Counted from the stretch's first letter, positions 10,255 through 22,556 are shown. The stretch is DNA of 64,000 nucleotides from Phycisphaerae bacterium (GCA_963675745.2 CAXXWX010000010.1:126563-190562); one strand, 5' to 3'. Numbers and translations: made by a program. Notes: generated from the sequence alone by a model not told the origin.

Positions 10255-10578
10255 CTATGCGAATATCCCGTGTAGATACCACCTGTTTTCATTAAGCGCC
10301 CGGAAAATCCAGAATTGCTCGCCGGTGTCGGTTTCAACACGAAAATAGTCGCGACGAACATCGGAGCTACGCCACCAGGCTGTTTCAACGCGTTCGGGGC
10401 CCACCGATCGTGTGATGATGTGCTCGCGACCCTGATGACAAAACCACGTGGGCGGACCGGCGGGCATCAAGGCGATCACGCGTATTGGAAGCGGCTTGGA
10501 AAAGAGCTTCGTCGGCCGCGCCCCTGCGGCACCCGGCCCTCTGGGATAAGGTGTTGACGTGGGTGATGGCACCATCAC
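10255..10578 (-). CDS. C-terminal ImuB domain, encoded in a separate frame from the rest of imuB
   Basis: RPTKLF..P.PIRV..GPP..GPERVETAWW..RDYFRVE..FWIFR..WYLHGIF is the usual ImuB C-terminus. Confidence 0.75.
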   Translation of the reverse strand: MMVPSPTSTPYPRGPGAAGARPTKLFSKPLPIRVIALMPAGPPTWFCHQGREHIITRSVGPERVETAWWRSSDVRRDYFRVETDTGEQFWIFRALNENRWYLHGIFA

Positions 10579-12050
10579 CGGTCTCCCGCTGCGGGCCGCG
10601 AAGCCGGTGGCCGGCCAGCGGTCGTAAATCGCCGGGGATACTCCACCCGTTCGGAGGGTTGGGGACGGAATCGAAGGTGGGAGGTTGGCTTAAGGAACAG
10701 TCCGCCCACCAGCCCTCGAACGGATGGGGTACCCTCTGTGCAATGGCGGTTTTCCGGATCATCCGGCGCAGTGACCGCTGTTTTCTCGCTGATCTCGGGC
10801 GGCGTGTCGGCGGCGCCGTCTTCAGCCGAATCATCTCGAGCTTTGCAACCGGCTACCGACACCGGGACGTAATTGAACGAGAATTCGGGTTGGTGATCAT
10901 CGACCAACTGTGGTCGAACAACTGCATCAGGTCCCAACCGGTTCGCCAGTCGGTCAATCAGGCAGCCCAGATCTTCATCGGCTCGTGGATCGTGGTACTC
11001 GAAAAGGTCGCCCTGGCCGGGTTGCCATCGGGCGGTCCGGCGTGCGAGCAGTAAGAGACCGGTGATGCCGGAGCCGAGATCACTCGACTCGATCCGACCG
11101 CGTATTAACTCGTCGATGTGCTGCCAGGCGCGCGACGGGCGGGACAGATTTACCCGCAACGTAACCGGTGGCGCATGTTCGTGATAAACTACCAGCTCCA
11201 GGCACTGCACGCCCAATCCGCATCGCTGAAGCTGGTCGGCGATTTCATCGAGCATCTGCCGTGCCAGCGCGGGAAGCGGGCGCGCATCTGTGATTGGAGC
11301 TTCGAAGCTCAATCGCGTGGCCGGTAACGGTTTGTACGGCTGGGCGACAAGTGGCTCGATAGTCTCGCCGAGCGCTTGCCGCAAACGCTTGACCAACCCT
11401 TGACCAAAGCGGGCCGGCAATGATGCGCGGGGCAGATCCAACAAGCCGCCGATTGTGCGAATGCCCAGCGTAAGCAGTTTTTCGAGTGTGCCGTCATCGA
11501 GACGTAAGGCGGCCGGCGGTAACGGCGCGAGGTGGGCACTGATCTGACCCGCCGACACAACCGTTGTCTCACTCGGGCCGGTAGTCGCCAGTGCGTACGC
11601 GGCGCCGACGGTGTCGGCGATAGCCACCCGCGCGCTGAACCCCCGGTGTGCCAGGCCGTGGTACGCCTGATGCGCGATGTTCTCCTCTCCTCCGAAGAGC
11701 TGTTTACAGCCGGTGATATCGACCAGCACACAATCAGGCTCATAGGGCTGAACGGTCGGGCTGAAACGCAAAGCCCAGTTGGCCAACCCGCGAAGCTGTT
11801 GACGATCACGAGCGGGGTCAAACGGCAGTGCCATCAACTGTGGCACGGTTGCCTGTGCCTGCCCCAGTGAGACGCCGGCTTCGATTCCGCCGGCACGGGC
11901 CCGCGGGCAGCGACGCGCCACCACCTGTGACTGGTTGACCCGCTCGACAAGCACCAGCGGGCGTCGCGCGTCAGCCGGCGCTATGGCGTTGTCGCACCGC
12001 AACAGGTCGGTCGACAGGTATGGCAGATGCAGGCACAGCACCCGGCGCAT
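10575..12050 (-). CDS. imuB: ImuB, inactive Y-family polymerase homolog (N-terminal part)
   Basis: MRRVLCLHLP, WALRFSPTV, LVDITGCKQLFGGE, ARVAIADTVGAAYALA and LIDRLANRLG; directly downstream of imuA. Confidence 0.85.
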   Translation of the reverse strand: MRRVLCLHLPYLSTDLLRCDNAIAPADARRPLVLVERVNQSQVVARRCPRARAGGIEAGVSLGQAQATVPQLMALPFDPARDRQQLRGLANWALRFSPTVQPYEPDCVLVDITGCKQLFGGEENIAHQAYHGLAHRGFSARVAIADTVGAAYALATTGPSETTVVSAGQISAHLAPLPPAALRLDDGTLEKLLTLGIRTIGGLLDLPRASLPARFGQGLVKRLRQALGETIEPLVAQPYKPLPATRLSFEAPITDARPLPALARQMLDEIADQLQRCGLGVQCLELVVYHEHAPPVTLRVNLSRPSRAWQHIDELIRGRIESSDLGSGITGLLLLARRTARWQPGQGDLFEYHDPRADEDLGCLIDRLANRLGPDAVVRPQLVDDHQPEFSFNYVPVSVAGCKARDDSAEDGAADTPPEISEKTAVTAPDDPENRHCTEGTPSVRGLVGGLFLKPTSHLRFRPQPSERVEYPRRFTTAGRPPASRPAAGDR

Positions 12051-13215
12051 CGGGAAACTCCATCGCAAACGGTTCGCCGGGTATTCCTTCCCGCAGCTTG
12101 AGCACCGTTACCAACATGCGGCGCGCCTCCGCGCGGCCTTTCAGGGGATCAAACCGCAGTCGAGTGGCGGCGAACGTTTTCCCACCAACATCATTACAGC
12201 GCAACAACAAGCCCAGGCCCGCGCCGGCCTCGGCGGCCAGTTGCAGACGCCGGGAAAGCCGCATATCCAGCTTGCGAACCGTGGCGACCACGGCACCGAA
12301 CGCGCGGCAGCGCAGACTCTGTTCACAGACCCACAACACATCGGCGTGACGATGCGCGCGGATGATGAGCAAGCGCCCCAGCGGCATTCCAAGCAGTTTC
12401 GCCGCGGGCGGGTAAAAATCCTCCGCGGCATCGATGTACATGATCCAGCGTCCGGTTGGCGTGGCCTGGATCGCGGTGTGCAGTACCAGCGAGTGTACCG
12501 CTACCCCGGCACTACCAGCGACGAACTCGTGGACCGCTCCGCGGACAAACCCACCACCAAGGACGGCGTCGAGCGGTGGAAAACCGCTGGGGCAACGCTC
12601 GGTTGACGGACGATAGTGTTCCCTCAAACGGTCAATCCGTCGCTGTAGTTCGGCAAGCTGTGAATCACCCGGCTTGGTGATCCTGTGCGTAAGCCCGCTG
12701 GCGGCTGACGGGGCGGTGGGTCGAAAACCCGTAACGACCTGAGTCCCTGCAACGGCCGATGTCTTTGTCGGACGTGGGACGCCGGTACGCGCACGAACGC
12801 GCGGCGGCTTTGGATCGCACTGCTCAAGAGCAGTGGCACACGTCTCAGTAGCGGCCTGCGCCTCGCAGGCCGTTGGCGTTAAGCAGGCTTTCCCATGTTC
12901 GACGGCCGGCGGGGCGCCGGCCGCTACATTTGTGGGACCGACTACATTTGTGTGGCCGACTGCATTTGTGGGACCGGCTACACTTGTGGGACCGGCTTCC
13001 AGCCGGTCAGGTCGGTCAGGTCGGTCAGGTCGGTCAGGTTGGTCAGGTTGGTCAGGTCGGTCCAGTCGGTCAGGCCGGCCAACGAGAATGTCGGTCGCTG
13101 CATTACCTTGCGCCGTCCGCGATTTCCGCGCCGGATTATTGACGATGCGCGAATCGCTCAAATTGTCAGCGCACCAGAGGCGCTTGGCCGATTGTCGGCA
13201 CACAGACGACGACAT
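11971..13215 (-). CDS. imuA: ImuA (RecA/SulA-like) with a long low-complexity N-terminal extension; start uncertain
   Basis: SGFPPLDAVLGGGFVRGAVHE, FYPPA, WVCEQSLRC and RRLQLAAEAG motifs. Confidence 0.8.
   Translation of the reverse strand: MSSSVCRQSAKRLWCADNLSDSRIVNNPARKSRTAQGNAATDILVGRPDRLDRPDQPDQPDRPDRPDRPDRLEAGPTSVAGPTNAVGHTNVVGPTNVAAGAPPAVEHGKACLTPTACEAQAATETCATALEQCDPKPPRVRARTGVPRPTKTSAVAGTQVVTGFRPTAPSAASGLTHRITKPGDSQLAELQRRIDRLREHYRPSTERCPSGFPPLDAVLGGGFVRGAVHEFVAGSAGVAVHSLVLHTAIQATPTGRWIMYIDAAEDFYPPAAKLLGMPLGRLLIIRAHRHADVLWVCEQSLRCRAFGAVVATVRKLDMRLSRRLQLAAEAGAGLGLLLRCNDVGGKTFAATRLRFDPLKGRAEARRMLVTVLKLREGIPGEPFAMEFPDAPGAVPASAIPVDRPVAVRQRHSAG
12924..12995. repeat. Tandem repeat, 4 x 18 bp (consensus CTACATTTGTGGGACCGR)
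   Basis: Read directly from the sequence; encodes VxGPTN-like repeats in the imuA frame. Confidence 0.9.
12986..13008 (+). repeat. GTRG-type REP-like hairpin
   Basis: GTGG followed by GACCGGCT-TCC-AGCCGGTC, a perfect 8-bp stem. Confidence 0.55.
13004..13075. repeat. Tandem repeat, 8 x 9 bp (consensus YGGTCAGGT)
   Basis: Read directly from the sequence; encodes PDR/PDQ repeats in the imuA frame. Confidence 0.9.
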
Positions 13216-13447: not shown

Positions 13448-13885
13448 TCAGTGATGATCCTCATGCCCCACGCCGGCCGGAGCAACCACGTAAATGTAGC
13501 GCATGATCTCGGTGCCCGTGTTGAACACGTTGTGCCGCGTTTGCGGCGGATTGTACGCGTATTGTCCGGCGGCAAGCGGGCGCCGTGGGCCGTCGCCGCA
13601 CGCCACTTCGCCGGCACCGGCCAGGCAGATAATCATCTCTTCGTAGTTCTCGGTGCTGTGCCAGCCGCAATCCTTGCCCGGCTCCAGAACCACGAATCCG
13701 GATCGCATCCCGACGGTGTCCGTCTTGCCCAGCAGACGGGCCGGTTCCTGCGTGTCCGGCACAGACCGGACAAAGCCCTCGCGCTGAGGAGTCTGGCTCA
13801 TTTGTGGTCCTCTTTCCGTACAGCCCAAAGCCGCCACAATCGGCAGCACGCCCACGATACACAACAAGCACTTCCCACGGTTCAT
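13448..13885 (-). CDS. Cupin-domain protein, probable lipoprotein, with a His-rich tail
   Basis: LEPGKDCGWHSTENYEEMI..G.G and YNPPQTRHNVFNTG cupin motifs; ALGC lipobox-like; C-terminal HEDHH. Confidence 0.75.
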   Translation of the reverse strand: MNRGKCLLCIVGVLPIVAALGCTERGPQMSQTPQREGFVRSVPDTQEPARLLGKTDTVGMRSGFVVLEPGKDCGWHSTENYEEMIICLAGAGEVACGDGPRRPLAAGQYAYNPPQTRHNVFNTGTEIMRYIYVVAPAGVGHEDHH

Positions 13886-13941
13886 CTGCCAGCCTTCCCG
13901 CACTGCCCGGTCTTTCCGCACCCAGCGGGCGCGGCTTTCGT

Positions 13942-14361
13942 TCAGCGCAAAGCCTCTCCTGTTGTTGCCATACTCACCGATGCGTGGAGTACGCCACGCT
14001 GTTTGCCCATTTCGTCGGCCAGCCGCTGGATGCGGGCGCGCTTGCCGCGCACCATGATCATCTCGGCACACATTTCGTGCGACAGATGCACATGCGTCGA
14101 AGCGAGGATGTGCTCGGCGTGCTGGTGCTGGATATCAACCAGACGATCGAGCAGTTCACGCGCATGGTGGTCATACACCAGCGTGATCGTCGCCACGACG
14201 TCCTGGCGCGCATCCGCCCACTCCTGCTGGACGACGCGCTGTCGGATGAGGTCCCGCACGAATTCCGAACGGTTGGTGTACCGGCTGCCGCGGGCCAGTC
14301 GCTCGAGTTGCTGCGCCAAGCTCGCTTCCAACGAGATGCTGATACGCACCAGATCGGACAT
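13942..14361 (-). CDS. nikR: Nickel-responsive regulator NikR
   Basis: RHH domain RISISL..YTNRSEFVRDLIR; YDHH and HVHLSHEMCAE nickel ligands; divergent from the ECF transporter. Confidence 0.95.
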   Translation of the reverse strand: MSDLVRISISLEASLAQQLERLARGSRYTNRSEFVRDLIRQRVVQQEWADARQDVVATITLVYDHHARELLDRLVDIQHQHAEHILASTHVHLSHEMCAEMIMVRGKRARIQRLADEMGKQRGVLHASVSMATTGEALR

Positions 14362-14475
14362 CCACCTATCCTCACACGATCACCCGCAACCTGGTCGCGG
14401 CGCAGCCCGATGACCAGGCGTCTAATACCACCCACGCGGCAAGCACACATCGCATCCGCCGAACGGCGCCGCTGC

Positions 14476-14520
14476 TTGACTAGAGCCGGGCATAATATTA
14501 CGATTTTGAAGTACGTATTA
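14476..14520 (+). promoter_or_regulatory. Sigma70 promoter with overlapping NikR-type operator
   Basis: TTGACT (14476), 17 bp, TACGAT (14499); TATTA-N15-TATTA at 14496-14520 overlaps the -10 element. Confidence 0.65.
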
Positions 14521-14661
14521 CCAGGGAATGGTCCGCCGTATTCCGGATCTGCGCCGCGCACGCCCCGGGCGGGGCTGTTCGCGCACCCTTCAGGGTCGTG
14601 TTTGACCCTGTCGTGGTGGTCCGGCTTATGAGAAACCCCACAATCGAAAAGGTGACGCCGC

Positions 14662-15627
14662 ATGCACATCCCCGATGGCTTCCTGGATGGTAAGACGGCC
14701 GTGGCGACCGGGGCCCTGGCTGTGACGGGGTTGGCGGTTGCACTGCGGCACGCCCGGGTACACCTGCCGCCGCGCAGCGTACCGCTGCTGGGTCTGGCGG
14801 CGGCTTTTGTGTTTTCCGCTCAGATGATCAACTTCCCTGTGGGCGGTGGCACCTCGGGCCACCTGATCGGAGGCGTGCTGGTGGGCGCGCTGCTGGGGCC
14901 GAGTGCCGCCGTCATCGTCATCTCGGCGGTACTGATCGTGCAGTGTCTGATGTTCGCGGATGGCGGCATCTCGGCGTTGGGCGCCAACATCTTCAACATG
15001 GGGCTGATCGGCGGCGTCGGCGGGTGGGCGATCTATAATGGCGTGAGCCGCACGGTCAAGGGGCTTTTCGGCTGCGTACTGGCCGCCGCCTTCGCCGCCT
15101 GGTGCAGCACGGTGCTGGCCTCTGTTGCCTGTGCCGGTGAACTGGCTGCTTCTCACACTGTTGGCTGGTCGGTGGTTCTGCCGGCAATGGCTGGTACTCA
15201 TATGTTCATCGGCATCGGCGAGGGGCTGATCACGGCGCTGGTGCTGGCGGCCATCGCGCGCACGCGCCCGGAGTTGCTCCGGCCGGCCGCCGCGCCGGAG
15301 CTGAAGCCGGCTTACGGTACACTGGTGGTTTATGGTGCGCTGCTCGCATTCGGGCTGGCGTTGTTCGCCTCGCCGTTTGCTTCGCAATCGCCGGACGGCT
15401 TTGACAAGACGGCGGAAGTGCTCGGCTTCAGCGACCGGGCCGCCGAGTCGGTCGTCCCCGCGCCGATTCCTGATTACGAGATGCCCTGGATTCACTGGAG
15501 TGTGCTCAGCACGGCCGTGGCGGGGGCCGTGGGAACGGCGGTTATGTTCGTGCTGGCGTGGTTGCTGGCGCGCATGCTGGTGCCGGTGACCAACCGCGGA
15601 GATGCCACCACGCCGCAAGCGCTGTAA
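14662..15627 (+). CDS. nikM: ECF Ni/Co transporter substrate component NikM/CbiM fused to a PDGLE-type (NikN-like) domain
   Basis: N-terminal MHIPDGFL, GTSGHLIGG and FADGGISALGANIFNM; C-terminal SPFASQSPDGFD..APIPDY. Confidence 0.92.
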   Translation: MHIPDGFLDGKTAVATGALAVTGLAVALRHARVHLPPRSVPLLGLAAAFVFSAQMINFPVGGGTSGHLIGGVLVGALLGPSAAVIVISAVLIVQCLMFADGGISALGANIFNMGLIGGVGGWAIYNGVSRTVKGLFGCVLAAAFAAWCSTVLASVACAGELAASHTVGWSVVLPAMAGTHMFIGIGEGLITALVLAAIARTRPELLRPAAAPELKPAYGTLVVYGALLAFGLALFASPFASQSPDGFDKTAEVLGFSDRAAESVVPAPIPDYEMPWIHWSVLSTAVAGAVGTAVMFVLAWLLARMLVPVTNRGDATTPQAL

Positions 15628-15638
15628 TAGAGCACCGG

Positions 15639-16250
15639 ATGCGACACGACTTCCTGGACCGCTACAGCCGGCTGGATTCTTCCATCCATCGCCTGCACGC
15701 TGGGGTGAAGCTCGCGGCGGCCCTGGCGGTGGTTGTGACGGCGCTGCTGGTGCCACCCTCTCGGCCAATCTGCTTGGGCGTCGTGGCTGTCTTTCTGCTC
15801 GCCGTTGCGGGATTCAGTCGGATTCCGTGGGTCTTCCTGCTCCGCCGGTTGCTCCTGCTGGAACCCTTCGTGCTGGGTGTGGCGCTGCTGGCGCTGTTCC
15901 AGCCGGACGGATGGCGGCTGTTCCTCTTCCTGGTCGCCAAGTGCACCCTCTGCCTGCTGGCCATGATCCTGTTGTCCAACACGACTCCGTTTTCGGATCT
16001 GTTGCGCGTGTTGAAGGCTGCGCGAATGCCGGCGTTGCTGGTGACGACGTTGTCGCTTATGTACCGGTACCTGTTCGTGCTGGTGGACGAAGCCCAGCGC
16101 ATGAAGCGGGCGCGGCTGAGCCGCACGTTCTCACCCCGCCAAAGCCGGAACTGGCGCACGCTTGCCACCGTCATTAGCCAGTTGTTCATTCGCAGCAGCG
16201 AGCGCGCCGAACGAATCTACGCCGCCATGTGCGCCCGGGGGTGGCGGTGA
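15639..16250 (+). CDS. nikQ: ECF transporter transmembrane component NikQ/CbiQ
   Basis: SIHRLHAGVKL, MYRYLFVLVDEAQRM..AR.SR and RAERIYAAM.ARG. Confidence 0.9.
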   Translation: MRHDFLDRYSRLDSSIHRLHAGVKLAAALAVVVTALLVPPSRPICLGVVAVFLLAVAGFSRIPWVFLLRRLLLLEPFVLGVALLALFQPDGWRLFLFLVAKCTLCLLAMILLSNTTPFSDLLRVLKAARMPALLVTTLSLMYRYLFVLVDEAQRMKRARLSRTFSPRQSRNWRTLATVISQLFIRSSERAERIYAAMCARGWR

Positions 16251-16996
16251 GCGCGGCCATCGAAATCAGAGACCTGCACTTCCGCTACGGTGAAGGCACG
16301 GCCGCGCTGCGCGGCGTCAGCTTCTCTGTCGCCGAAGGCGAGTGTGTTGGGCTGATCGGTCCCAACGGCGCCGGCAAGAGCACGTTGCTACTGCACCTGA
16401 ACGGTTTGCTGCCCGAATCCTGGACGGGCGTGAGCGCCGTGCTGGTGGGGGGGCGCGCGCTCACCAAGGAGAGCCTGCCCGAGGTTCGTCGCCAGGTGGG
16501 GCTGCTCTTCCAGGATCCCAACGATCAGCTCTTTTGCCCCACGGTATTCGAGGACGTCGCGTTTGGTCCTCAACAACTTGGCCTTGGCCGGGCCGAGATT
16601 CGTGAGCGCGTCGGGCGAGCGCTCGACCAGGCCGGGCTGCCGGGGTTTGAGGAGCGTGCTCCCCACCACCTGAGTGTCGGCGAGAAGCGTCGCGTTTGCC
16701 TGGCGGGTCTGTTGGCTTGCGATCCGTCGATTCTGGTGCTGGACGAACCCACGAGCAGCCTCGATCCGAAGGGCCGCCGGGATATCAAGGAGCTGCTGCG
16801 GCGGATTCCCATCACCAAGCTCATCGCCACCCACGATCTGGAGTTTGTGGTTGAGTTGTGCTCACGCGTGATCGTGCTGGACGGGGGCACCGTCGTGGCT
16901 GAAGGGCCGACGGTCGAGCTGCTCTCGAATGAGGAGCTGATGCGGCGCCACAGCCTGGAATGCCCCCACGTCCTGCGTCATCTGCACCCGCACTGA
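16247..16996 (+). CDS. nikO: ECF transporter ATPase NikO/CbiO
   Basis: GPNGAGKST, FQDPNDQLF, LSVGEKRR and LDEPT; GTGA overlap with nikQ. Confidence 0.92.
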   Translation: MSAAIEIRDLHFRYGEGTAALRGVSFSVAEGECVGLIGPNGAGKSTLLLHLNGLLPESWTGVSAVLVGGRALTKESLPEVRRQVGLLFQDPNDQLFCPTVFEDVAFGPQQLGLGRAEIRERVGRALDQAGLPGFEERAPHHLSVGEKRRVCLAGLLACDPSILVLDEPTSSLDPKGRRDIKELLRRIPITKLIATHDLEFVVELCSRVIVLDGGTVVAEGPTVELLSNEELMRRHSLECPHVLRHLHPH

Positions 16997-19512: not shown

Positions 19513-19610
19513 CCAGGGGCGGCAATTGTGCGCAAAGATACCGCCCGGCCGCGTGGTTTGAGCGCGACCGGGCGGAAGTGCTTGCTAGACAATGCCTCAC
19601 GCTGCGCGGC

Positions 19611-20729
19611 TTACGGCTCGGTCGCGTAGTCGTGGCTGTCGGTGGCGTCGGTGAACGGTGTGGCCACGCGCACATCCGCGTCCTGGGTCCACGACATTAT
19701 CCCGAACTTCAGGTTGGTCGCGTTGTAGCCGAGCATGTTCAGCGCGGTGGTCGCCAGGCCGCCGGTGTGACCGGTGTAGCAGTAGACGACGATCGGCTGA
19801 TCCGCGGGGATCTTCTGGAGGTTTTCAACCAGGGCGATCGTCTTCCACGGAATGTTGATCGCGCCCGGAATGTGGCCCAGCGCGTAATGCTCGGCCGAAC
19901 GCACGCTGATGATGAACGGATCGTTAGTGGCGTCGCCATCATTCAACAGGGCGAACAGATCGGCGGCCGTGGTCGTGGGCGGCGTGCCCGCATCCAGGTA
20001 CGCCTTGCCGGCGGCCCGGACAATCTCCATGTCGTCGGTCGAGGTGGAGACATCCAGCGTCGGCAGATCGTTTGTCGCCGAGCCCGGGTTGTCCGTGGTC
20101 TCGACGTCGTAGTCGTGCGAGTCGACAGTGTCGTCGAACGCCGCGGCAACGCGGATATCCGTGTCGCGCGTCCAGGCGCCCATGCCGAACTTCATGTTGA
20201 CAGCGTCATAGCCCAGCGCGCCCAGGAAGCATGTCGCGACGGCGCCCGTATGCCCGGTGTAGCAATACACCACCACTTGCCGGTCGGTCGGCACATCGGC
20301 GAGAACGCCTTCATCCGCGACCGTGCGCCAGGGAATGTTCACCGCGCCCGGCACGTGCCCCAATGCATAATGCTCGGCCGACCGAACGCTGATCACGTAC
20401 GGCCTGTTCAACTCGTTGGCGTCATTCAACGTCTCAAAGACCGTCTGTGCCGCGATCGCCCCTGCCGGATCGCCGGCAAAATACGTCGCCAGCGCCGTGC
20501 GCACGACCTCAAACTGGTCGATGGTCGTGGTGTTCGGATCGACCGTATTCGGATCGACCGTGTTCGGGTCAACCGTGTTCGGATCGACCGTGTTCGGGTC
20601 AACCGTATTCGGATCAACCGTATTCGGATCGACGTTGTTTGGATCGTCCACCGGCACCGTTGGGCAGCCACCCAACATGCACAGGCCGATGCCTGTGAGG
20701 ATCAGCAGCGTTAGATAGTTCTTCTTCAT
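19611..20729 (-). CDS. Tandem double-rhodanese (sulfurtransferase) lipoprotein with a DPNTV linker
   Basis: Two domains, each with SVRSAEHYALGH.PGA.NIPW and VVYCYTGH (catalytic Cys present in both); LGGC lipobox. Confidence 0.9.
   Translation of the reverse strand: MKKNYLTLLILTGIGLCMLGGCPTVPVDDPNNVDPNTVDPNTVDPNTVDPNTVDPNTVDPNTVDPNTTTIDQFEVVRTALATYFAGDPAGAIAAQTVFETLNDANELNRPYVISVRSAEHYALGHVPGAVNIPWRTVADEGVLADVPTDRQVVVYCYTGHTGAVATCFLGALGYDAVNMKFGMGAWTRDTDIRVAAAFDDTVDSHDYDVETTDNPGSATNDLPTLDVSTSTDDMEIVRAAGKAYLDAGTPPTTTAADLFALLNDGDATNDPFIISVRSAEHYALGHIPGAINIPWKTIALVENLQKIPADQPIVVYCYTGHTGGLATTALNMLGYNATNLKFGIMSWTQDADVRVATPFTDATDSHDYATEP
20529..20645. repeat. Coding tandem repeat, 8 x 15 bp (DPNTV)
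   Basis: Eight units counted directly, with synonymous codon variation between them. Confidence 0.95.
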
Positions 20730-20779
20730 AGTGAGTCTCCATGATCTCGTGAGTAGCAATCCCAAATGACCAAAGCCAC

Positions 20780-22213
20780 CTAGTTCATCTCCGGCGGCTC
20801 ATTGACGACAACAGATTCGTTGGCGGTAATCTCCGCCTCGACCATCAGTCCTTCGTCCACCAGCTCGGCCAGGTATGCCGAGGTCAGGAACAGATCCAAA
20901 TCGCCGTGGCACTCGGCGCATGATGCCGTCTGCGGCGTGCTGCGCTGAATGTTGTGCGGCGTCGCCGGCCGCCAAGTGGGCTGGTCGGCGAAGTTCGCCA
21001 AATCGATGTCCCAGTCCTCAAACGTATCGGGCGCAATTGGAATGTGCCGCAGCAGGACATACGTGTACGGTTGTGTGGCCGTCACGTTTGGATTGCGGCC
21101 AATGCGGAAGTCCATCTCCGACGGCAGTTGCAGGCCCTGCGTTTCCAGCTCCACGTGGCACTGATAGCAGTTCTTGTATGACATCGAGTGGCAGACCTGG
21201 CAGGCCACCGTTCCGGCGTGGCTGCTGTGGTATATCGAGCTCGACGTTGTCGACGCGGCGTCTGCGTGGCAATCCGGGCACTTCGGGCCGGCATCATTCG
21301 CATAGCGGTGGGCCGGCGTGGTGCCGTCGCCGTGCAGCTCGATGTCGTCGTGGCAAGCCATGCAGTTCATGCCGCTGCGCCAGTGGACGTCTTCAGCGAT
21401 ACCGGCGTTCTTTCCGAGGAACTCGTCACCGACGCGACTGCCGTGACAGGACGTGCAGTTGTCGGTGAGCGACGGCGTTTTGTAAAAAGTGTGCCCGCGC
21501 GTCAGACCGCCGCGCACGGAACTTGGCCGGCTGATATGGCATTGGCCGCAAGTGCCGTGGCAGCTCTCGCAGCGCGCGGCAAACATCGCCGCGTACTGGG
21601 CGTCGTCGGCACCGGCGTCGCTACGGTTGGCGAACGCGGTGAAGTAGCCCATCTGTGTCGCGTGCAGACTGTTCTGCACCTTAGCCGCAATCTCGGCGTG
21701 GCAGCCTTTGCAGGCCGGCGCGTCGCCGGCCGAAGGGTCAATCACCATGCCGACGTGGGCCGCGGCCTTTTCGTTCACCCCCTCCGCGCCTCCGTGGCAC
21801 GTGCGGCAGCCGATCGCGCCGTGAGTGGTGCTGGCAAAGCCACTGGCAATCAGAACACGCTCCCATACCTCCAACTGAGGTACAGAGCCACCTCACCCCT
21901 CGCCCGTGTCTTCGACCTGTGCCTCCTCCTCGCGAGCGACGGCCTTCAGCAACGTCTCATCGGTGTGACAGCCGATGCAGTCGCGCGCCAATGACGTCGG
22001 GTCGCCAGGCTGGTTGGGATCAGCCGGTGTATTGGGGTCAGCCGGCGTATTGGGGTCCGTTGGCGTGTTGGGGTCGTTTGGATCGCCGGGCGTGGTTGGT
22101 GTCGTCGGAGGGCAGCCGACGATCAGCAGCGTCAGCATCAGCAGCGCCAGCATCGGCGGCGCGCCGGCACGTGGACAGCGTCGTAGCGGATAGGGTGGTT
22201 TCGGCGGGTGCAT
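20780..22213 (-). CDS. Multiheme (11 x CxxCH) cytochrome c lipoprotein, predicted selenoprotein (TGA at 21893-21895 read as Sec)
   Basis: ORFs 21893..22429 and 20780..21874 are in the same frame and separated only by TGA plus 6 codons (DTGEG-U-GGSVPQLEVWERV). One CxxCH lies before the TGA and ten after it. GGAGG RBS before ATG 22213; IVGC lipobox; SECIS-like hairpin follows the TGA. Confidence 0.82.
21859..21888 (-). promoter_or_regulatory. Putative bacterial SECIS element
   Basis: GCUCUGUACCUC-AGUUG-GAGGUAUGGGAGC stem-loop; the G-containing apical loop starts 16 nt after the UGA. Confidence 0.72.
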
Positions 22214-22556
22214 CGTGAACCTCCAAGGACGGAACGCACAGAGATCGGTCATTACCGGTTCAGCGACAGATGACGGTACAGGAATGTAGACCGTCGGCGC
22301 CATTCTAGCGAGCGAAACGACAGCGACAAGGTTAGAAACGGGAGCGGATGGAGGCCGGGAATCAGCAGCGAGAAATCGAACGTCGCCGTGCGCGCCATGG
22401 GGCGTGCGGATCGTCGTTTCCATCGGCAAACGTGTCTTCTAATCAGTATCATGAGTGTACGATATCGACGCTCGAATCAGCACCGCAAGCGACCGGCATG
22501 CTGCCACCCAACGCCGCATGCTTTCGTGCAGGACGCTCCGCCAGTATCCTCTCAAC

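Follow-up and report, generated by a model that had tools for sequence, protein, structure and literature searches.

What reaction could join a multiheme cytochrome with an in-frame TGA to a rhodanese encoded right beside it? The question is raised by a 64,000-nucleotide stretch from a Phycisphaerae bacterium (GCA_963675745.2, CAXXWX010000010.1:126563-190562), hereafter the window, in which two co-oriented genes occupy positions 19611 to 22213. Both lie on the minus strand, as do the features within them. The gene at 20780..22213 encodes a c-type cytochrome lipoprotein of 477 residues with eleven hemes, which contains selenocysteine (Sec) at residue 107 if its single TGA is read through. The gene at 19611..20729 encodes a double-rhodanese lipoprotein of 372 residues. 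Our analysis indicated that the TGA almost certainly specifies Sec and that the association of the two proteins is conserved across several phyla; by analogy, we slightly favor a role in reducing sulfane sulfur.

The signal peptide of the cytochrome (22112..22213) ends in a lipobox, LIVG-C34, by the generally known pattern, and is followed by a low-complexity Pro/Thr/DPN tether (21989..22111). One of the 11 CxxCH motifs lies before the TGA and ten lie after it. Apart from Cys34 of the lipobox, every cysteine of the mature protein falls within such a motif. The partner also has a lipobox (LGG-C22) and a tether of DPN repeats. It contains two Pfam rhodanese domains (PF00581, 108 bits), with CYTGH active-site loops at C156 (20262-20264) and C317 (19779-19781). 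The spacer between the genes is exactly 50 base pairs long (20730..20779, minus strand) and carries a GGAG ribosome-binding-like site, while GGAGG stands 6 nucleotides ahead of the cytochrome ATG. A first-pass annotation, made from the sequence alone, had described two co-oriented lipoprotein genes 50 base pairs apart, one for an 11-heme protein with Sec and the other with two CYTGH rhodanese sites. The spacing, both lipoboxes, the heme count and both loops agreed with that description, and the Sec agreed with the codon survey that follows.

The TGA (21893..21895) is codon 107, in the context EDTGEG-U-GGSVP, which contains the motif G-x-G-U-G-G, and it lies 28 residues past the first cysteine of heme motif 1. 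We collected 88 homologous loci, of which 6 came from genomes, 2 from a class search (one of them a duplicate) and 80 were the best of 576 metagenome matches. TGA was present at the same site in 85 of the 86 loci that could be assessed; the other had TGG, and two could not be assessed. Because a Sec-type query was used to select similar loci, this set over-represents Sec. Among 15 further loci from other genomes, 11 had TGA and 4 a Cys codon at this site. Full-length database proteins, which cannot show Sec, numbered 35, with Cys at the site in 14 and another residue in 21.

Just behind the TGA, the sequence can form a hairpin of the selenocysteine insertion sequence (SECIS) type (21862..21886), with a conserved core at 21865-21883 and an invariant loop G at 21875. 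Across 83 sequences, 92% of its cells were paired, and double changes were found in 6 of the 8 pairs. Its covariation score was reached by none of 500 shuffles, a test that relatedness inflates; the slid controls, which keep the relatedness, paired at 39-51%. The 48 nucleotides from the TGA folded with a z of -2.6 against shuffles, and the first 76-nucleotide fold behind the TGA was no better than shuffles (z -0.3).

The host genome encodes selA, selB, selD and tRNA-Sec, and its selD carries an in-frame TGA of its own. The selB gene is frameshifted in the assembly (contig C7, near 47996). However, of four relatives checked, three had selB as a long open frame of 650-680 residues. At the break, two contigs of run X1 lacked two letters, and no listed contig bridged it unchanged. 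A search of sequencing runs with the selB stretch listed no RNA run containing it, which has no bearing on expression of the pair. Thus, the frame break is probably an assembly error, although the depth behind this is thin. The NF049953 model of the GUxG motif family found no match in the host genome, where its controls did not match either. Because TGA recurs in 85 of 86 loci, the hairpin covaries, Cys versions exist and the host genome has selA, selB, selD and tRNA-Sec, these sequence data make the TGA almost certainly a Sec codon.

Some variation around the site is worth recording. At locus L041:483, TGG accompanies a motif one codon shorter, which reflects either a sequencing error or a real loss of Sec. 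In three loci (L129, L130 and L133), a further cysteine immediately precedes the site (GEC-U-GG or GEC-C-GG); a vicinal selenosulfide or disulfide could form there. Two genomes (L121, L123) have a second paralog with a degenerate motif (GS-U-AG, GA-U-PN); one of these paralogs lacks Arg260, a residue discussed below, yet has a rhodanese neighbor.

We then considered how firmly the rhodanese is tied to the cytochrome, as conservation of the pair had been set beforehand as a test of the proposal. The loci comprised 87 distinct ones, equivalent to 81 groups at 90% identity, 46 at 70% and 24 at 60%. A same-strand rhodanese was adjacent in 70 of the 87, downstream in 51 and upstream in 19. Among the 17 loci without one, 15 had a short flank near a contig end; of the two with long flanks, one had a rhodanese about 1 kb away and the other had none. 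When 21 doubtful partner reading frames were compared with Pfam, 20 were rhodaneses and one was cut too short. In the 15 further loci, a rhodanese lay within 1.5 kb in 10, and one Cys-type locus with full flanks had none. The active-site cysteines C156 and C317 were invariant in 28 aligned partners, and the host genome holds only one other locus matching the partner rhodanese. The partners were of several kinds, including double CYTGH lipoproteins, lipoproteins of 4-6 domains with CASGHR, CGSGWR or CKSGTR loops, and single domains.

In a separate subfamily, a large one of the Desulfobacterota, cytochrome and tandem SseA-type rhodanese are joined in a single protein. With such a fusion as the query, 454 proteins were retrieved at E<=1e-60, and the rhodanese domain was present in all 120 matches listed, whose names included Desulfobulbaceae, Desulfofustis, Desulfobacterales, Geobacteraceae and Nitrospirota. 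Every one of the 120 starts downstream of the Sec site, and ten heme motifs are present in 118. Judged from the protein records alone, these starts fit truncation at the UGA. The cytochrome-rhodanese pair is therefore conserved, adjacent or fused, across several phyla. That different rhodaneses were recruited repeatedly is our main argument for sulfane-sulfur chemistry.

The cytochrome family is large. Of 8000 candidates scored, 907 proteins reached E<=1e-10, and at 50% identity there were 211 clusters (E<=1e-30). The closest homolog, from a genome of the same family, was 76% identical over the mature protein. The first-pass annotation had placed the pair as an analog, of different architecture from the Geobacter Ext system, in a planctomycete-like organism. 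The host type was right, but a restriction to planctomycetes did not stand. We found the cytochrome in 2 of 300 other genomes of the class, 0 of 400 of the phylum, 1 of 40 close relatives and 0 of 3 same-genus genomes. In another phylum, it occurred in 12 of 301 genomes (centre genome included). Matching clusters of the ESM Atlas, which are automatically named clusters of this same cytochrome family only, were mostly from Chloroflexota and Thermodesulfobacteriota. The family is common in Chloroflexota and Desulfobacterota and rare and patchy in planctomycetes, and we rejected the idea of a planctomycete-specific module.

Among the neighbors of the 87 loci, genes that recurred included those for a LysR regulator (in 21 loci), for a ferredoxin subunit of the NrfC/FdnH type (in 20) and for cytochrome c maturation (Ccm; in 8). 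Sampled loci carried NrfD/QrcD-like anchors, formate dehydrogenase (FDH) genes and Ccm genes, and one (L065) had a true gene for octaheme tetrathionate reductase (OTR) near the pair. At L051, L052 and L095, a divergent operon encodes an 8-heme cytochrome, an NrfC-like ferredoxin and a QrcD/NrfD-like anchor, with LysR between the operon and the pair; together, these are a candidate for a complete chain from quinol to the Sec cytochrome. The host genome itself has two NrfD-family genes and 23 frames with at least 3 heme motifs, which is unusual for a planctomycete. Three multiheme frames are very large, with 46, 23 and 20 CxxCH motifs (C26:165465-170876, C6:156948-159818 and C26:790894-794127).

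The predicted structure of residues 73-477 had a mean predicted local distance difference test (pLDDT) score of 92.6 and a predicted template modeling (pTM) score of 0.88. The arm that bears Sec is N-terminal and falls between the first and second hemes. The best fold match was OTR (PDB 1SP3), with a Z of 9.1 and a root-mean-square deviation of 4.4 over 263 aligned residues, values that are moderate; Foldseek gave an E of 1.9e-3. The next matches were HAO-type proteins, with a Z of 4.7 or less. An MccSep chain was not among the fold matches, which carries no weight because its entry may be newer than the library. In a profile alignment with hhalign to the OTR of the host itself (probability 97%), hemes 3-9 paired with OTR hemes I-VII. 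The sequence alignment to 1SP3 agreed for hemes 3-4 and 7-9, with heme 4 matching OTR heme II, and the structural alignment extended to the C-terminal heme. Heme motif 4 (C215-H219, 21557..21571), aligned to the second OTR heme, may thus be the catalytic one. No NCBIfam 20.0 family matched the cytochrome over its cutoff. A search of PDB sequences gave no significant match to the protein by itself, and a profile recovered weak multiheme matches only.

Ten histidines outside the heme motifs were conserved in Sec-type members, against 11 hemes, and one of them, H390, was replaced in 15 of 35 full-length non-Sec members. With at most ten such histidines and H390 variable, at least one heme lacks a distal His, leaving a free or non-His site. 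The conservation of Arg260 (21434..21436) tracks the presence of Sec or Cys, and we note it as a candidate anion-binding residue, a lead only. Some family members (P0124, P0128, P0134, P0147 and P0160) have 6-9 further hemes, in some cases with a hydrophobic C-terminal tail, which suggests a built-in wire to the membrane.

From these parts and their association, both of which are observed, we infer the chemical steps, the binding between the two proteins and the direction of the reaction. By analogy with MccSep, a Sec cytochrome of Geobacter sulfurreducens described below, we lean, by a little, toward a scheme of polysulfide reduction on a different scaffold, in which sulfane sulfur carried by the rhodanese is attacked by Sec, with electrons provided by the heme chain. 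The two genes would form a membrane-tethered extracytoplasmic sulfane-sulfur reductase module. Persulfides would form on the rhodanese cysteines, with sulfane sulfur drawn from polysulfide or possibly from thiosulfate, and the selenolate would attack the S-S bond with release of sulfide. The Se-S bond would then be re-reduced through the heme chain at the heme without a distal His, most likely heme 4, and Arg260 may help to bind the anion. The quinol pool or formate could be the electron source, by way of NrfCD/Qrc-like or FDH-type modules; these are encoded next to the pair in many other genomes and at other places in the host genome. The module would serve sulfur respiration or act as a facultative electron sink.

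Several observations weigh against this scheme. Of the internal parts of the model, the Sec loop has the lowest confidence (block pLDDT 71). Neither Cys nor Sec is found at the site in 21 of the 35 full-length non-Sec relatives, so the scaffold persists without either. In MccSep, a conserved Cys that ligates a heme is required beside the Sec, whereas the cytochrome has no spare cysteine in its mature form. Arg260 was kept in 82 of 82 Sec-type members, 11 of 14 Cys-type and 6 of 21 others (nominal p 0.006), but it is a single column out of about 110 that were tested, it was noticed in the very data that give the signal, and it is confounded with divergence. It was also kept in 119 of the 120 fused forms listed, and one Sec paralog lacks it. 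No quinol-oxidizing module, nor any other of the redox modules named above, lies beside the pair within the window, and gene context does not give the direction of the reaction.

That direction matters for the strongest of the alternatives, itself improbable, in which the pair works oxidatively or reversibly: sulfide would be oxidized onto the rhodanese and electrons would leave via the hemes, in sulfide oxidation or as a step of sulfur disproportionation. The Desulfobulbaceae, Desulfofustis, Desulfobacterales and Nitrospirota, from whose records fused forms come, are groups that include sulfur disproportionators, and NrfCD-type modules can run either way. The hosts of MccSep receive a similar remark in the available part of PMC13510729. 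However, many hosts belong to anaerobic heterotroph lineages (Anaerolineae, Phycisphaerae), the formate dehydrogenase genes at some loci suit a terminal reductase, and dsrA was not found in the host genome, which is 91% complete. Ranking next, and also unlikely, is a thiosulfate or tetrathionate reductase derived from OTR, with Sec acting as the reactive cysteine does in TsdA and the rhodanese removing sulfane sulfur. The OTR-like fold and heme order would suit this, as would the thiosulfate-sulfurtransferase (SseA) type of the fused partner and the OTR gene near the pair at L065. Nevertheless, the Lys/NNFC segment before OTR heme II is missing here, the host has its own OTR elsewhere, and MccSep is inactive on both thiosulfate and tetrathionate, as stated in the accessible text of PMC13510729.

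We give a lower probability to a selenium substrate, either through selenite reduction and detoxification or through capture of selenium on the rhodanese for selenoprotein synthesis. The neighbors of the 87 loci include no recurring sel gene cluster, and selenite is scarce relative to sulfur in such habitats. One locus (L038) does have another selenoprotein-family gene nearby, UshA-like and below cutoff, and a rhodanese perselenide is cited in the reference list of PMC5877670, as far as that list is available. MccSep also reduces selenite, but its preference for polysulfide is about sevenfold (PMC13510729, available part). Slightly lower again stands the view that Sec is a permanent axial ligand tuning the potential of one heme, so that the cytochrome would be an electron carrier and any catalysis would occur on the rhodanese. 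One heme without a conserved distal His and the many relatives that keep all hemes without Sec or Cys would agree with it. The substitutes Ala, Trp, Tyr and Pro are not ligands, though, and a near-invariant, costly Sec with its SECIS would be more typical of a catalytic nucleophile. Least credible by far is that the TGA is a real stop separating a small monoheme lipoprotein from a decaheme protein. The databases annotate it so, with most matches starting after the TGA, and selB is frameshifted in the assembly. Against this stand the continuous Cys-containing homologs and the covarying SECIS; the downstream part would be left without an export signal although it requires heme attachment, the break in selB is probably an assembly error, and selD too carries a TGA in frame.

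If sulfane sulfur is indeed reduced or transferred, the cytochrome would be a sulfur-respiration enzyme and a marker gene for sediment Chloroflexota, Desulfobulbaceae and Phycisphaerae. It would likewise be a candidate for the periplasmic step in sulfur disproportionation. A broader reading, which is possible though we would put it short of an even chance, is that the cytochrome represents a second, independently evolved class of selenium-heme enzyme. It would be derived from OTR, with a Sec arm reaching an open heme and possibly binding the iron directly, and with sulfane sulfur delivered by a dedicated rhodanese. It would serve as a molybdenum-free module for polysulfide respiration or sulfur disproportionation in Chloroflexota, Desulfobacterota, Nitrospirota and some Planctomycetota, one that stayed hidden because gene callers cut at the UGA. 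Databases do truncate family members at the Sec codon.

Full-text searches of the non-subscription literature found no description of an eleven-heme Sec cytochrome family, and within the literature searched MccSep was the only characterized multiheme selenoenzyme. Table 1 of a 2026 review (PMC13188914), in its available part, covers 119 selenoprotein families and names ExtKL, a GSU2204-type protein and a Sec-bearing TIGR04315 protein; none matched the cytochrome in both motif and heme count. The available portions of PMC12545173 and PMC9676032 discuss rhodaneses in sulfur oxidation or disproportionation and do not mention the cytochrome there. We conclude that this is a widespread, unnamed and apparently undescribed selenoprotein family, separate and large, with a strong genomic link to rhodaneses and a fold unlike that of MccSep.

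The surroundings of the two genes are consistent with a single unit. A strong GC-rich hairpin at 19541..19575 (fold z -5.5, no strand assigned) lies between converging genes and is a probable terminator of the unit, though the terminator scan did not list it because it has no T-run. Upstream of the cytochrome runs a diverging gene that we take, from its sequence, to be purU. The pair looks like a two-gene unit because this hairpin separates it from the converging gene and purU diverges upstream. A weak sigma-70-like promoter match (22302..22329, minus strand, 9/12 matches) precedes the cytochrome gene, where the promoter scan was at chance level, with 2 matches against 0.8 expected. An Rfam scan gave no match over the gathering score. 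The first-pass annotation had also pointed to the DPN-repeat tethers. Both proteins have them, but so do many unrelated exported proteins of the host genome; the repeats therefore do not set the pair apart, and we rejected them as a marker. An 8-heme lipoprotein (C15:152084-153676) is among the many other exported proteins with this tether, and the repeat looks like a lineage-wide linker. Elsewhere in the window, translations were recognizable as ImuA/ImuB-like damage-inducible mutagenesis genes (10575-13215), and as a cupin, a NikR-like regulator and a Cbi/Nik MQO-type energy-coupling factor (ECF) metal transporter (13448-16996).

Among known systems, OTR of Shewanella oneidensis (1SP3, TIGR04315) is the best, though moderate, structural match to the cytochrome, and the core hemes of the two align in order. 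The differences are three added heme motifs (1, 2 and 10), the N-terminal Sec arm, the lipid anchor and an identity of only about 20%. The catalytic heme of OTR is heme II, which has a Lys ligand. The Lys/NNFC segment before this heme is a gap or replaced in the cytochrome in both alignments. A preprint, in its available part, places the catalytic heme of OTR in the N-terminal module (bioRxiv 10.1101/2022.02.24.481543). A further likeness is the Sec-bearing TIGR04315 entry listed in Table 1 of PMC13188914 (available part). TIGR04315 (cutoff 375 bits) gave no match to the cytochrome at E<=0.01. The host has its own OTR-family lipoprotein over that cutoff, encoded by a separate gene (C26:782107-783870), as well as two more distant OTR-like proteins (L103, L104). 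As modeled, the cytochrome resembles an OTR-like scaffold with three extra hemes, outside the OTR family model.

The division of labor proposed here has a parallel in the Sud/Psr system of Wolinella succinogenes, in which an exported rhodanese passes polysulfide sulfur to a terminal reductase fed by an NrfD-type quinol module. Psr uses molybdenum, whereas the putative catalytic unit here is a heme/Sec protein. MccSep, or ExtKL (GSU2937-2936), offers the closer likeness. The available part of PMC13510729 describes it as a five-heme periplasmic tetramer with a His/Cys-ligated heme 2 and Sec325, which reduces polysulfide with Sec beside a heme. A rhodanese-like lipoprotein, ExtH, belongs to the ExtKL cluster (PMC5877670, available part). 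Like MccSep, the cytochrome is an exported multiheme protein with one Sec from UGA plus SECIS, Cys variants and a rhodanese in its cluster. However, it has 11 hemes rather than 5, and it is lipid-anchored with an adjacent or fused rhodanese, in contrast to the soluble periplasmic tetramer. Its Sec, residue 107 of 477, lies near the N-terminus in GxGUGG, whereas that of MccSep lies in DGUP within a C-terminal Ig-like domain; in the model of the cytochrome, the late part of the chain holds no more than a short beta-hairpin region. NF040886 (cutoff 250 bits) gave no match at the locus and three weak matches elsewhere in the genome. The different architecture from ExtKL claimed at the outset was upheld, as the cytochrome failed the ExtKL family model, the heme count and the Cys-ligand test. 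For these reasons it may work like MccSep without being a member of that family, and MccSep is what it most plausibly works like.

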